Shown here one piece after another: positions 1 to 62,898 of a stretch of DNA of 64,000 bases. The stretch lies in NCBI GenBank assembly GCA_963829055.1, contig CAWHHI010000004.1:704001-768000 (forward strand). Reading direction: 5' to 3'. This DNA comes from an uncultured Gemmatimonadaceae bacterium. Its GTDB lineage: Bacteria; Gemmatimonadota; Gemmatimonadetes; Gemmatimonadales; Gemmatimonadaceae. The position numbers and the translations under genes were made by a program. How positions within the stretch are numbered: position 1 is the stretch's first letter; each line of letters opens with the position of its first letter. The notes under the pieces are model-generated. The model was not told the DNA's origin and did no database searches. It worked only from the letters and a program-made list of their open reading frames with translations.

Positions 1-589
1 CCGGCGGTGGCGGCTCCGGGTACAGGCACCGGTAGCACGGGCCGTCCTCTGTCGCGAATACGGAGGCCTGACCGTCGAATCGAAAGATGCTGCCGTAGAC
101 GTTAGGCTTCCCGAGCAACACGCAGGCGTCGTTCACCAGATACCGCGTTGCGAAGTTGTCGGTGCCGTCGAGCACGAGGTCGTACTCGCGCACGATCGTG
201 AGGGCGTTCGCCGCGGTGAGTCGCGTGGCGTGCAACTCGAGCTTCACGTTGGGATTCGCGTCGTGCAGCCGATCTCGCGCCGCGTCGAGCTTCGAGCGTC
301 CGACATCCCCAGTGCCGTACAGGAGCTGACGCTGGAGATTCGTAACCTCGACGATATCGAAGTCGACGAGACCGATGGTTCCGACGCCGGCCGCCGCGAG
401 GTACAGCGCGGCTGGTGAACCGAGCCCTCCGGCGCCAACGATCAGTACGCGCGCAGCCTTGAGTTTTCGCTGGCCATCGATGGCGACTTCGGGAAGCAGC
501 AGATGCCGGCCGTAGCGCAGCAACTCCTCGCGCTCGAGTGCGGGCGCGGTGCGGGACCGAATCAGGGGATTGTCGAGTGTCGCAGTCAT
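1..589 (-). CDS. moeB: MoeB/ThiF/MoeZ-family sulfur-carrier adenylyltransferase (3' end runs off the window)
   Basis: Not in the ORF track because it is open at the edge. Hand translation from ATG 589 gives RYGRHLLLPEV...RVLIVGAGGLGSPAALYLAAAGVGTIGLVDFDIVEVTNLQRQ...DGTDNFATRYLVNDAC...GPCYRCLYPEPPP, the canonical E1-like motifs. Confidence 0.95.
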   Translation of the reverse strand, partial: MTATLDNPLIRSRTAPALEREELLRYGRHLLLPEVAIDGQRKLKAARVLIVGAGGLGSPAALYLAAAGVGTIGLVDFDIVEVTNLQRQLLYGTGDVGRSKLDAARDRLHDANPNVKLELHATRLTAANALTIVREYDLVLDGTDNFATRYLVNDACVLLGKPNVYGSIFRFDGQASVFATEDGPCYRCLYPEPPPP

Positions 590-591
590 TC

Positions 592-867
592 TCAGCCTCC
601 AGCGACGGCAGAAACGATGATGAGCTCATCGCCATCGGTTACCGTCGCCTGGAATCCTCCGCCGAAGCGGATGTCTTCGTCGTTGAGATAGTAGGTGACG
701 AAGGGATAGGGCTCGCCACGATCATCGACGAGTCGCGGGGATAGTGACGGGAAGCGACGCGTGAGGTCGGCGACGGCTTCTCCGACGGTGGCGCCCGACG
801 CTTGAAGGGCGCGCTGGCCGTCGGTGAGGCGGGAGAGAACGCTCGGAAGAGAGATCGTCAGAGACAT
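592..867 (-). CDS. MoaD/ThiS/CysO-like ubiquitin-fold sulfur carrier protein
   Basis: 91 aa with YLNDEDIRF motif and C-terminal AVAGG (Gly-Gly); lies directly upstream of moeB. Confidence 0.93.
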   Translation of the reverse strand: MSLTISLPSVLSRLTDGQRALQASGATVGEAVADLTRRFPSLSPRLVDDRGEPYPFVTYYLNDEDIRFGGGFQATVTDGDELIIVSAVAGG

Positions 868-874
868 AGAAAGG

Positions 875-957
875 CGCTGGGTGCTGGGTGGTCTTGCCGG
901 TGCTGGGTGGTCGTGCTGGTGGCTGGGTGTGGCTACGTGCGAGCGTGCTGCGTGCTG
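875..957 (+). repeat. Intergenic GCTGG(G)T-rich repeat; copy of a dispersed element
   Basis: 902-929 GCTGGGTGGTCGTGCTGGTGGCTGGGTG differs by 1 base from 44462-44489. Confidence 0.85.
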
Positions 958-963
958 ACAGGC

Positions 964-59760: not shown

Positions 59761-60144
59761 CTACTTGCTAGCGGCGGCAGTCTGCGCGGCGGGCTCCGCT
59801 GCCGTCAACACTCGCGCGATGCGGCCGCGCTCGACGATGAGTCGTGACTCGTCCGACTTGATCGTGATCCGGTCATCCATCGTCGCCCCGGACTTGCCGT
59901 CGCGTGCGGTCTCGCTGATGTGGAGCACCTTCCCGATGATGCCGCCCGACGTGACGACCTCGTCGCCGCGCTTGAGGTTGCGCAGCCGCTCCTCGTGATC
60001 TTTGCGCTGTTTCTGCTGCGGTCGGATCATCACGAAGTAGAAGATCGCGAAGATCGCGACGACCTGAAACACGAACGGCAGCAGCGACGAGCGCCCGCCG
60101 ACGGGGGACGCCTGGACGACGGCGAGGGCAAACAATGCGGTCAT
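59761..60144 (-). CDS. yajC: Preprotein translocase subunit YajC
   Basis: [27 protein letters not shown]; follows tgt. Confidence 0.95.
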
Positions 60145-61340
60145 GGAACCGGTGCGGGTCGGGAGTGGTAACGGGCCAGCCAGTCGCGGCTCCAGGCGTC
60201 GAAGCTGCCGTCGGCAATCGCGGCGCGCGCGCGGCGCATCAAGGCGACGAGGAAATGTACATTGTGCAGCGAGAGAAGGCGCAGGCCCAGGATCTCATCG
60301 GCCACGAACAGGTGCCGCAGGTACGCCCGGGAAAACCGCGTGCATGTGGGGCAGTCGCACGTCTCATCGAGCGGTCGCGCGTCGACGCGGAATTCGGCGC
60401 GCCGGACGTTGACGCGGCCGTCGCTGGTGAACGCGGTGCCATTCCGCCCCATGCGCGTGGGGGCCACGCAGTCGAACATGTCGACGCCGCGCTTCACGCC
60501 CTCGACGAGGTCCTCCGGGAACCCGACGCCCATGAGGTAGCGCGGCCGGTCGACGGGTAGCTCGTCGTTCACGACCTCGAGCATCGCGTACATGTCGGGC
60601 TTCGATTCGCCGACCGAGAGACCGCCGATGCCGTAGCCGGTCCAATCGCCAATGGAGCGAATCGCGCGCGCCGCTTCTCGTCTCAGCGTCGAGTGGATAC
60701 CCCCTTGGACAATTGGGAAAAGCGTCTGGCGGGAATCGGGAACGGGAATCGGGAATCGGGCTGCTGCTTCGCGCGTCGCCCGCGTCCCGATTCCCGTCCG
60801 ATTCCCCATTCGTTCCAACTCTGCTTTGCAGCGACCCAGCCATCTAATGCTTCGCTCGCTCGCATCGCGCGCGGCCGCTTCGTCCGATTGTCCCGGAATC
60901 ACGTGATCGAATTGCATGATCACATCCGCCCCGAGGCTTCGCTCGATGTGCATCACCGACTCCGGTGTGAAGCAATGCTTCGAGCCGTCGATGTGGCTGC
61001 GGAATTCCACGCCGTCTTCCGAGATCGTGCGCAGCGACTCGAGCGAGAACACCTGGAATCCGCCGGAGTCCGTGAGCATCGGGCCGTTCCAGCCCATGAA
61101 CCGGTGCACGCCGCCAAGCGCTTCGATGACGTCCTCGCCGGGACGGAGGTGCAGGTGATACGTGTTCGCGAGGATCATCTGACACCCGATCGTCGTGAGC
61201 TCCATCGGGTCGAGCGCCTTGACGGTTGCGAGGGTGCCGACGGCCATGAACGCTGGCGTGTGTACGGGGCCATGCGGCGTCATGAAGACGCCGGCGCGTG
61301 CGGCGCCGGCGGAGGCCTGATGCTCGAACGTGAAGCTCAC
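60141..61340 (-). CDS. tgt: Queuine tRNA-ribosyltransferase with an in-frame repeat-derived insertion
   Basis: [48 protein letters not shown]. Confidence 0.96.
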
Positions 61341-61367
61341 GGGCAGCTCACGTACAACCCGACCGGT

Positions 61368-61832
61368 TCACTCGCGAGCCGCGCGGCACGGACGATGGTC
61401 GCGGATCATCGGCAGCACCTCGAGCGTGGACGCTGCGACGTTAGGCGCGCAGCTGTACCCCATGCGCAGCCGTCGCGTCGCGGACGTCTTGGTCGTCGCC
61501 CGCAGAGAATCGACCTTGAGCTGTGCAGCCACCGTGCCGAACAGGCCATCCAGGAGCTCGTCGCCCGACGATGACACCAACTCGGCTCGCGTGACGGCGC
61601 CGGTGGTATCGGTGAGAACGGTGACGCGCACGTCGCCGCTCTCGGGCTTGTTCGCCGCCAGCCGCTCGGGGCATTGCACGCGCAGATACTGGTCGAGTGT
61701 CTGCGTCGCGGCATCGAGCTCGAAGCGCGGGTTCTTGGCGTCAGGGAGGTAGTAGCGCGTCACGGTATGCACGCATGCCGCCGCCACGAGCAACATCGCG
61801 ACGCCGAGCATGGTTAGGCGCTGCCGCGTCAT
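61368..61832 (-). CDS. Hypothetical lipoprotein with a TonB C-terminal-like domain
   Basis: Lipobox AAAC; SGDVRVTV..DTTGAVTRAELVSSSGDELLD resembles TonB_C/TolA. Confidence 0.6.
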   Translation of the reverse strand: MTRQRLTMLGVAMLLVAAACVHTVTRYYLPDAKNPRFELDAATQTLDQYLRVQCPERLAANKPESGDVRVTVLTDTTGAVTRAELVSSSGDELLDGLFGTVAAQLKVDSLRATTKTSATRRLRMGYSCAPNVAASTLEVLPMIRDHRPCRAARE

Positions 61833-61845
61833 CGCGGCCGGCCGC

Positions 61846-62898
61846 TCATAAAATGACCATCGCATCGCCATAGGAATAGAATCGGTAGCCTGTCTCGAGC
61901 GCTGTTCGATACGCGCGCATCGTGAGGTCGTACCCGGCGAACGCAGCGACGAGCATGATCAGCGTGGAGCGCGGAAGATGAAAGTTCGTGATCAGTTTGT
62001 CTACGGCGCGGAACTCGTACGGCGGCCGGATGAAGATACGCGTGTCGCCGCTCGCCGCGGCGAATGATCGGTCTTCGCGCGCCGCGCTCTCGAGCGTCCT
62101 CACCGACGTGGTGCCAACCGCCCAGATATTTCTGCCGTTCGCCCGCGCCGCGTTGAGCGTCTCGGCCGCGGCTTCACTGAGCCGAAACCACTCCTCGTGC
62201 ATCACGTGGTCCGCGGGATCGTCGGTTTCCACTGGCTTGAATGTTCCCGCGCCGACGTGGAGCAGGAGATCGGCGCGCCGGACCCCTTTTGCGGCGAGCG
62301 TGTCGAGAAGCTCCGGCGTGAAATGGAGGCCGGCGGTGGGTGCCGCGACCGATCCCGACTCGTTCGCGTAGACGGTCTGATACCGGTCCGTGTCCGTGGC
62401 TTCATCGCTGCGCGCGATGTAAGGCGGCAACGGAACGTGTCCGACGCGCTCTATCGCTTCGTCTATCGGCAACGGCGATCGCAGTTGCACGATGCGCGAG
62501 CGACGATCGGTCACCTCGAGGACATCAACGTCGAGCTCCGGCGCGATGTGAATCGTGCGGCCGGGTTTCACCTTTCCGCCGGGGTGGACGAGCGCCTCGA
62601 ACCGATCGTCGCCGAGTGGCTTGAGCAGAAACACTTCGGCGGGTGCACCGGAGTCTCGTGTGCCGAGGAGCCGGGCGCGGAAGACGCGCGTGGTGTTGAG
62701 CGCGAGCGCGTCGCCGGGTGCGACGAGCGTGGCAATGTCCGCGAAGCGGCCGTGATCGATCGTACCGGCGGCGCGGTTCACGATCATGAGCCGGCTCTGG
62801 TCGCGCCGCGCCGCGGGCGTCTGCGCTATGCGGTCGCGGGGGAGCTCGAAATCGTAGTCCGAGGTGCGGAGCCCGGGTGTGGCGTTAGGCGCTGTCAT
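61846..62898 (-). CDS. queA: S-adenosylmethionine:tRNA ribosyltransferase-isomerase
   Basis: YDFELP..IAQ, PLPPYI, YQTVYA, AAPTAGLHF, TNFHLPRSTL, YRFYSYGDAM. Confidence 0.96.
   Translation of the reverse strand: MTAPNATPGLRTSDYDFELPRDRIAQTPAARRDQSRLMIVNRAAGTIDHGRFADIATLVAPGDALALNTTRVFRARLLGTRDSGAPAEVFLLKPLGDDRFEALVHPGGKVKPGRTIHIAPELDVDVLEVTDRRSRIVQLRSPLPIDEAIERVGHVPLPPYIARSDEATDTDRYQTVYANESGSVAAPTAGLHFTPELLDTLAAKGVRRADLLLHVGAGTFKPVETDDPADHVMHEEWFRLSEAAAETLNAARANGRNIWAVGTTSVRTLESAAREDRSFAAASGDTRIFIRPPYEFRAVDKLITNFHLPRSTLIMLVAAFAGYDLTMRAYRTALETGYRFYSYGDAMVIL

Follow-up and report, generated by a model that had tools for sequence, protein, structure and literature searches.

A hyper-abundant octamer in Gemmatimonadales as a candidate uptake-sequence-like self tag

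Copies of the word in the window

The window analysed here is a stretch of 64,000 nucleotides from an uncultured Gemmatimonadaceae bacterium (GCA_963829055.1, contig CAWHHI010000004.1, positions 704,001 to 768,000; G000:C4:704001-768000 in our numbering). It is a housekeeping region with ruvB, queA, tgt, rsmB, tsaD, a glcD-like gene and others among the 20 open reading frames (ORFs) scanned. Scattered through it is a short word, the heptamer CCTAACG (CGTTAGG on the other strand), whose octamer form GCCTAACG may be an uptake-sequence-like self tag spread by molecular drive, a reading by analogy to which we give an even chance. A sequence-only reading had listed 19 copies of CCTAACG and 17 of CGTTAGG, and a recount found every position exact and the list complete. 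The 36 heptamers compare with 2.73 +/- 1.48 in 100 dinucleotide shuffles (maximum 7). A rough zero-order expectation of about 7 had been given earlier, with true enrichment probably higher; Markov expectations are 7.5, 2.5, 1.5 and 3.8 at orders 0 to 3. The heptamer proposed as the unit is over-represented, but the real unit is the octamer (G)CCTAACG with tolerated variants, and GCCTAACG makes up 29 of the 36 copies. At 56 heptamers per 100 kb the window falls short of the genome-wide mean of 82, and no close inverted pair of the word occurs in it.

By a self-trained gene model, which covers 77% of the genome and some of whose 'intergenic' calls are missed genes, 32 of the 36 copies overlap genes and 4 lie outside called genes. 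Rare codons are forced, as had been noticed from the letters. In what follows each copy is GCCTAACG unless a variant is named. TTA, in xLG, is used ten times: at 3622..3628 (+; TLG, ACG TTA GGC), 10013..10019 (+; variant ACCTAACG, ALG), 15791..15797 (+; SLG), 17673..17679 (+; variant CCCTAACG, TLG), 24439..24445 (+; ALG), 42520..42526 (-; PLG), 46669..46675 and 47358..47364 (both -; ALG), 50380..50386 (+; ALG) and, in tsaD, 52105..52111 (+; TLG), a position also occupied in G005, G002 and G305. CCT-AAC (PN) is used nine times, at 100..106, 2982..2988 (variant ACCTAACG), 15528..15534, 17060..17066 (within the glcD-like gene), 52624..52630 (variant ACCTAACG), 59194..59200, 61439..61445 and 62883..62889 (near the queA 5' end, adjoining a GGAATGAC-type repeat), all on the - strand, and at 37820..37826 (+), within a sensor kinase gene. 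CTA (xLT) occurs five times, at 12020..12026 (-; CTA ACG, GLT), 24724..24730 (-; CLT, followed by 6.6 kb without a heptamer), 33125..33131 (+; GLT, TamB-like gene), 34226..34232 (+; variant ACCTAACG, NLT) and, in rsmB, 55581..55587 (-; RLT), which is also occupied in G002 and G005. The four AGG copies (GTT AGG, xVR) are all on the + strand, at 1360..1366 (read in a - strand gene), 2572..2578 (variant CCCTAACG), 17403..17409 (within the glcD-like gene) and 53727..53733.

Four copies supply stop codons, at exactly the positions proposed earlier (6279, 6912, 16149 and 19247). The copy at 6277..6283 (-) is the TAA stop of ORF 6279-6902 and that at 16147..16153 (-) the TAA stop of the glcD-like ORF 16149-17579, while the copies at 6911..6917 (+) and 19246..19252 (+) are the TAG stops of the - strand ORFs 6912-7517 and 19247-19684. 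The remaining copies lie outside called genes at 10378..10384 (+) and 43437..43443 (-), outside confidently called genes at 10894..10900 (+; variant TCCTAACG), and, at 31321..31327 (+), 5' of the start called for the TamB-like ORF.

Abundance, retention and local exclusion in the genome

The genome of the window (G000) comprises 7.78 Mb in 20 contigs. The heptamer occurs 6,391 times, at 64-109 per 100 kb on each contig and once per 1.2 kb on average; the octamer occurs 5,004 times where a Markov model of order 3 expects 258, and CCTAA is followed by C in 96% of cases. In 4,729 high-confidence genes 3,707 copies were counted, against 220-243 in five synonymous-codon shuffles (16-fold). Loss of the enrichment under a codon-preserving null had been named as what would speak against a signal; instead the genome-wide excess persists over these shuffles, and the idea of a genome-wide signal overriding codon habits is borne out by both counts. 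Chance or a codon artefact is ruled out by the dinucleotide shuffles, the Markov expectations and the synonymous-codon shuffles together.

The word dominates the contexts that can hold it. In confident genes it is carried by 62% of PN[VADEG] and 28% of [ASPT]LG contexts; it accounts for 1,457 of the 2,464 TTA codons, and of 819 TAA stops 296 fall within CCTAAC. Protein sequence is biased as well, with 1729 PN[VADEG] tripeptides vs 1054 reversed and 2492 ALG vs 1615 reversed; a similar enrichment is reported in a passage of PMC2817400 for the uptake signal sequence (USS) of Pasteurellaceae and the DNA uptake sequence (DUS) of Neisseriaceae. No positioning at promoters or start codons was found, and there is an excess at stop codons and just 3' of them. 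Flank analysis over the genome found no conserved flank beyond ~2-3 bases, which rules out a mobile repeat as the carrier of the word, and no second half-site beside it. Density is 50 per 100 kb in genes of low G+C at third codon positions and 74-90 in genes typical in this respect.

Retention was followed by aligning 244 segments with congeneric species; the segments are not independent of each other, and their four-fold sites are 51% identical. TTA is kept in 42 of 54 cases inside the word and 1 of 17 outside, and CCT in 38 of 47 inside and 28 of 199 outside; A/T-ending four-fold codons are kept in 644 of 3564. Sites are therefore held by selection or biased conversion, and this codon retention in orthologues rules out a mutational hot-spot without retention. 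In 18 aligned genes of 41 genomes, sites arise by substitution in aligned codons and are mostly lineage-specific.

Copies of the octamer exclude each other locally. Their pair correlation (g) is 0.17-0.26 below 100 bp, 0.35-0.57 at 100-200, 0.72-0.90 at 200-400 and ~1 beyond 500, whereas eight control words give 1.0-3.9 below 100 bp. Compatible contexts are used at 0.05, 0.14, 0.23, 0.25, 0.37, 0.43, 0.47 and 0.49 as the nearest site moves from <50 to 600-1000 bp away, with a decay of 134 +/- 14 bp in a log-odds fit; occupancy drops to 0.18 where the nearest other site is >2 kb away. Since occupancy near a neighbour stays slightly above shuffle level (~0.02), this is a diminishing return and not a penalty. 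Pairs closer than 50 bp are all depleted (same-strand 0.38, head-to-head 0.16, tail-to-tail 0.14), opposite-strand pairs at least as strongly as same-strand ones. Sites on opposite strands thus substitute for each other, and the reader of the word therefore most likely acts on double-stranded DNA. There is no shortage of long gaps (39 exceed 6 kb, vs ~43 from an exponential), as expected under an uptake-type model, in which sites far apart are additive. In H. influenzae, two USS within 100 bp gave no extra uptake according to a section of PMC7811141, and an additive, orientation-free signal redundant under ~100 bp matches USS uptake as measured there.

The same repulsion separates variants. 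Those that keep C(C/A)TAAC count as sites: ACCTAACG, CCCTAACG, GCCTAACA, GCCTAACC and GCATAACG keep their distance from the octamer (g 0.22-0.54 at <100 bp), and GCCTGACG, GCCTCACG, GCCGAACG, GCCCAACG and GCCTACCG do not (1.04-1.26). The tolerated single-base variants thus look, on their letters, like the family of a putative binding site.

A chromosome signal of the Chi, KOPS (FtsK-orienting polar sequence) or Xer type shares the short asymmetric, non-palindromic form of the word, and phage mimicry is described for Chi in a part of PMC3784561. The observed over expected ratio of ~2.3 reported there for Chi compares with ~16-20 for the word. The absence of strand skew stated earlier is confirmed, with 2409 of 4968 octamers (48.5%) on the leading strand; as a positive control, four KOPS words are strongly polar in the same segments (73-87% leading). 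The word thus has no replichore polarity and its redundancy is independent of orientation, opposite orientations being interchangeable, and these tests refute a Chi/KOPS-type signal unless its reader is two-ended and orientation-free. Where the GC skew switches, a dif-like site (C16:560,797-560,825; TTATAA TATGTA TTATGTAAACT) shows no copy of the word in its XerD arm, which speaks against Xer. Against Chi, an AddAB-type nuclease domain (PDDEXK_1, PF12705) was not found in the carriers G241 (96%) and G014 (92%), and it is present in G000 and in the untagged G294. We give this class of signal next to no credence. As a separate observation, the word is sparser in the terminus region (19-36 per 50 kb vs ~41).

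Three tracts of foreign composition (50, 44 and 32 kb), which may be assembly chimeras, hold no copies. Wordless tracts with deviant tetranucleotide use lie at C6:5,440-55,038, C11:1-44,055, C6:591,808-623,330 and the start of C4, and one of them holds a second def/fmt-like gene set (~48% identity). They are probably chimeric or foreign DNA in the assembly, and the word can be used as a contamination check that spots foreign contigs.

Relatives, integrons and viral contigs

Among 41 relatives and 301 genomes of the phylum the word is enriched in Gemmatimonadales only, and outside this order none of 103 genomes exceeds ~15 octamers per Mb. Genomes G013, G086, G125, G204, G336, G337, G404, G500, G517 and G543 (unpublished) enter totals only. 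Across 331 family genomes CCTAAC ranges from ~1 to 219 per 100 kb. All seven genomes of genus g1 are enriched, as are all seven of g9 (195-219 per 100 kb) and nine of ten in g161, while in g46 six of nine are heavy (~140-157 per 100 kb) and three of nine are below 4. A tree of ten proteins, weakly supported at depth, places the heavy carriers in scattered positions; this pattern is consistent with an ancient system that varies in strength or has been lost repeatedly. A ~100-fold range of tag strength in one family, with heavy and empty genomes in one genus, is a natural experiment, and the reader should therefore be findable by comparative genomics. No replacement over-represented word was evident in 3-20 kb samples of untagged genomes. 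Lineages have dialects with AAC in common: NCCTAACG with GCATAACG in G000 and G014, GCCTAACN with GCCCAACG and GTCTAACG in G241 and G298, and GCCTAAC(G/A) with GCCCAACG in G305 and the named Gemmatirosa plasmids, to stretches of which G000 proteins are up to 84% identical. This identity supports the assignment of G000 to Gemmatimonadaceae. A small replicon, L437 (G305:C4, a 21 kb contig), reaches a density slightly higher than the mean of its host, with 17 octamers in 20 kb. No description of the word in Gemmatimonadota was found in the open-access literature, a coverage outside which most subscription journals fall.

A nucleoid-organising site, which the sequence-only reading had also suggested, would be bound by an abundant sequence-specific protein that spreads over ~100-300 bp and makes extra copies inside its footprint useless. 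The orientation-free exclusion on the 100-300 bp scale and the single half-site with weak flanks are compatible with it, and HIP1 of cyanobacteria was read in this way in a part of PMC5861425. We nevertheless hold it improbable: no periodicity of the word, helical or other, was found in the genome up to 1.5 kb, near-absence in the congeners of g46 is odd for a core structural role, and the enrichment in phages described below would be left without a reason.

The suggested HIP1-like methylation or repair route fared worse. HIP1 (GCGATCGC) is likewise a hyper-abundant octamer kept in coding sequence, and it is linked to transformation and recombination in parts of two reports (10.1101/2024.09.10.611283; PMC13756078). 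Unlike it, the word is non-palindromic (GCCTAACG / CGTTAGGC) and its cognate methylation was not found. CCTAAC is shaped like a site of bacteriophage exclusion (BREX) systems, and methylation-directed repair might also give local exclusion. SMRT (single-molecule real-time) sequencing detects m5C and partial modifications poorly. The plasmid NZ_CP007129.1 of the cultured Gemmatirosa kalamazoonensis carries 778 octamers vs 20 of a control word, and two 50-kb plasmid stretches carry 36 and 35, yet the SMRT methylome of this strain lists only the m6A motifs RGATCY, ATGCAC and CCAGN7TCA (PMC3974934). A C5 methylase (PF00145) was found in none of five heavy carriers, with the m6A/m4C methylase families not searched by profile, and DndC, of the phosphorothioate system, in none of four carriers and one untagged genome. 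PglZ matches are one gene, in a frame of 519-564 aa, which is also in the untagged G294 and not found in G014; a search for SspB was silent in its controls. A modification word of any of these kinds is already largely refuted and strikes us as extremely unlikely.

The word is, letter for letter, the attC R box of this lineage's integrons, a match on which the sequence-only reading had not remarked. The attC core-site consensus is RYYYAAC / GTTRRRY, and the g46 dialect (GCCTAAC, GCCCAAC, GTCTAAC) fits it. In G000 attC sites start with GCCTAACGC and often end with CGTTAGGC, and in untagged relatives many copies of the word stand in same-strand arrays ~550 bp apart. GCCTAAC is named an R'' box in a passage of PMC12901181. 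A search of G000 gave 18 rows with ~10 true attC, <1% of the word sites. The integron integrase gene intI lies at C20:208,041, and PF00589 genes number only three in the genome. The integron is chromosomal, with attC sites scattered over ~90 kb (C20:119,000-209,000 and L001) and more on C9 and C10; its IntI is divergent, at 266 bits vs 340-470 for most full-length matches in relatives. In genus g45 an integron integrase lies ~10 kb from queA (G293:C9, G194:C91), which suggests a fixed chromosomal integron site in this genus.

That IntI or a derivative of it reads the word is suggested by this match at the attC ends, by the arrays and by the g46 dialect. IntI is a poor candidate. Its presence is untied to the trait: it occurs in 33 of 43 genomes, with or without the tag, was looked for without success in the carriers G002 and G004, and is frameshifted in G014. 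No special clade of carriers was seen among 29 of 30 loci aligned, with that of G000 left out, and the R' variants GTTAGCN of G000's own attC are depleted genome-wide, GCTAAC standing at 0.2 of expected. Unlike attC, >99% of the copies are solitary, in ordinary genes, without hairpin; they have no L-box partner and do not form paired R''/R' and L boxes, and they arise by codon substitution. We consider an IntI reader very improbable. A stand-alone IntI N-terminal domain was rejected as a reader as well: its match at C4:2862 is a truncated intI bordering on DNA that is frameshifted and looks foreign.

Viral contigs were searched in five scans for octamer pairs, which favour dense contigs and returned at least 122 (flanks for 80), 40, 38, 76 and 43 stretches. 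Among the matches listed, most stretches hold 2-3 copies, a few are same-strand arrays, and seven viral lineages carry dispersed copies on both strands. CCTAAC stands at 380 per 100 kb in L296/L279, 253 in L185, 153 in L252, 132 in L419/L420, 108 in L127, 85 in L239 and 45 in L113, and the octamer at 34-211 per 100 kb over the seven vs 0.2-1.1 copies expected. Whole records hold 18-31 octamers vs 0-3 of a control word in five of five cases. The densest lineages are evenly spaced (L296: mean gap 247, maximum 752, coefficient of variation 0.59; L185: mean 381), and the tagged lineages use the dialect of G000 and G014. Six of the seven have head, tail or packaging genes, and L239 has a peptidase and a PKD/beta-helix protein.

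Protein matches point to hosts in the Gemmatimonadaceae group, which these phages appear to infect. Of 240 confirmed genome matches to the L252 terminase, the highest-ranking is to a metagenome-assembled genome of Gemmatimonadaceae (66%, next 52%), and four of 301 family genomes match it, G520 over part of its length at 67%. For L185 and L296 the match, at 30-58%, is to a prophage head region of the untagged G157 (terminase: 10 of 301 order genomes), and G000 encodes proteins 40-59% identical to some of L239, L420 and L127. Beta-helix-type proteins at L239:5837-8341, L420:12239-14389 and L127:11571-13316 are 40-52% identical to secreted-looking G000 proteins, and one of these three contigs also encodes a peptidase 59% identical to a G000 protein. 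A search for relatives of the L185 portal among viral contigs returned only itself, annotated in the Atlas as an SU10-type portal, with no host clue. Seventy-nine other terminase loci hold 8 octamers in 1.29 Mb; L469 and a phage contig of the moderate carrier G520 are untagged. The word may serve as a marker for phage-host assignment. Separately, attC-like hairpin arrays (GCCTAACG...GTTAGGC) recur every 300-450 bp between small ORFs in L145/L146, L162, L138 and L151, as integron-like cassette arrays inside phage genomes.

The tagged phages lead to the main rival explanation, an intracellular self tag, in which a host protein would bind the word on double-stranded DNA and protect or license ~200-300 bp, against a nuclease or silencer or for recombination or repair. 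Host sites would be kept by weak selection, and selection would favour phages that copy the tag, in the way that lambdoid phages mimic Chi. The tagged lineages on both strands, their counts, even spacing and dialect fit it, as does the related prophage head module of G157, at the end of a chromosomal contig, with no octamer over 70 kb; as a precedent, Chi is at least as frequent as in the host in phages that have no RecBCD inhibitor, according to the part of PMC3784561 concerned. Against it, host coverage is far from complete with long gaps unsuppressed, USS phages are tagged too, the hosts of the tagged phages are assigned by protein matches, and no octamer occurs in 6 kb of a phage contig from the tagged G520 or in 15 kb of the nearest named relative of the L252 terminase; the missing DndC, C5 methylase and, in two carriers, AddAB-type nuclease speak against it as well. 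Because the terminator-pair hallmark of uptake sequences fails, a receptor was not found and some phages are over-tagged, we regard such a tag as possible though doubtful. A fuller version seems to us unlikely: in Gemmatimonadales a methylation-free self/non-self system would use the integron R box as its password, an intracellular protein reading GCCTAAC(G) on double-stranded DNA and sparing or licensing ~250 bp, so that cassettes, tagged at both ends, would pass as self, the chromosome would fill, and tailed phages of several unrelated lineages would converge on the word to escape, some of them at a density beyond that of every host examined.

Weighing an uptake-type tag

Among the proposals of the sequence-only reading, a DNA-uptake sequence is the best fit by its hallmarks (density, retention, tripeptides, dialects and redundancy), with terminator pairs the part that does not agree. 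Like USS and DUS, the word is non-palindromic, comes at ~1 per kb on both strands, is imposed on coding sequence with the frame bias and tripeptide enrichment partly described in PMC2817400, and seldom occurs in foreign DNA. A part of PMC3630211 likewise describes dialects built on a short invariant core, and close pairs are redundant in the section of PMC7811141 cited above. Temperate phages are tagged in both cases. Three temperate Pasteurellaceae phages carry the USS of their host at 40-53 per 100 kb, and 1,471 USS in a host genome amount to ~80 per 100 kb. The count of 1,471 is that given for a Pasteurellaceae host in a passage of PMC1939737. Tagged phages are therefore compatible with an uptake model. 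By analogy the word appears to work like USS and DUS, as a candidate member of that class.

In the favoured explanation, a putative sequence-specific receptor would recognise the word in double-stranded DNA, whichever way it points, and favour import or recombination of the DNA that bears it. Word-bearing alleles would then replace wordless ones, and copies would build up by point substitution wherever protein coding permits; build-up, retention and tripeptide bias are observed, and drive would be their cause. A second copy within ~100 bp would add almost nothing and the advantage would be full beyond ~300-500 bp; a receptor footprint or fragment size may lie behind the redundancy seen at ~100-500 bp. 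Tag strength would vary by lineage and specificity would have drifted into dialects around the invariant AAC. Speculatively, the preference may go back to integron cassettes of the order, whose attC R box is the same word, and long-resident temperate phages would also acquire the word.

Competence machinery is present, with ComEC in 43 of 43 genomes, HHH_3 in 43 of 43, PilM in 41 of 42 and DprA in five of five. Several observations weigh against an uptake-type tag. Competence genes are equally present in tagged and untagged genomes, no gene marking tagged genomes was found in the minor-pilin clusters of 20 genomes, and the HHH_3 match of G000 itself is weak, in an 81-aa frame. The 91 genes conserved in untagged relatives are no richer in the word (occupancy 0.368 vs 0.370). 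Inverted pairs at terminators, a hallmark of USS and DUS, are depleted, opposite-strand pairs <50 bp standing at 0.14-0.16 of baseline, whereas 17% of USS lie within 30 bp as inverted terminator pairs according to a section of PMC7811141. The core has only 7-8 bp. L296, at 380, and L185, at 253, exceed the most densely tagged of 331 host genomes (219), and USS phages lie below their own host; in scans that select dense contigs, the excess is significant for L296 (p=0.005) and not for L185 (p=0.19). Unlike USS and DUS, then, the word has a short core identical to an integron R box, is very uneven in strength across one order and in some phages reaches or exceeds host density; its receptor and uptake would be deduced from these patterns.

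Presence or absence of ComEC, ComEA-type helix-hairpin-helix proteins, PilM, DprA, PglZ and DndC did not discriminate tagged from untagged genomes, and a reader gene was not found among them. ComP_DUS (PF16732) was found in none of five genomes by a search equally silent in 14 of 14 controls, and an alignment of ComEA recovered 7 of 19 loci, heavy carriers not among them.

Proven uptake tags are so far found in two host-associated families of Proteobacteria, beside which HIP1 is a third, methylation-linked case; a tag in Gemmatimonadota, if true, would be an independent origin. The 130-bp redundancy curve is a number that an assay can check, and the cultured carrier allows a direct test. The integron core-site match and the tagged phages bear on the origin of the tag and on whether it acts at the surface or inside the cell.

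A few other repeats and gene features were noted. In AT-rich viral contigs (L120:130-4000, L364:9800-10300 and L364:14900-15400) GCCTAACGGC repeats are clustered, L120 having 14 of them on one strand within 4 kb, upstream of small ORFs; these clusters resemble promoter or regulatory repeats of phages and have no relation to the dispersed tag. In the window, fmt (58,202-59,137) has its family match confined to residues 1-152 in one frame, and, like several other genes, it has the look of a frameshifted gene of the sort that indel errors leave in long-read assemblies. REP-like (repetitive extragenic palindromic) repeats, present in the window at 62,890-62,905 and genome-wide, are strongly over-represented in G000, with ~700 copies of GTCATTCCGA / CTCGGAATGAC and ~200-240 of ACTGGGGACT and AATCGGGAAT.

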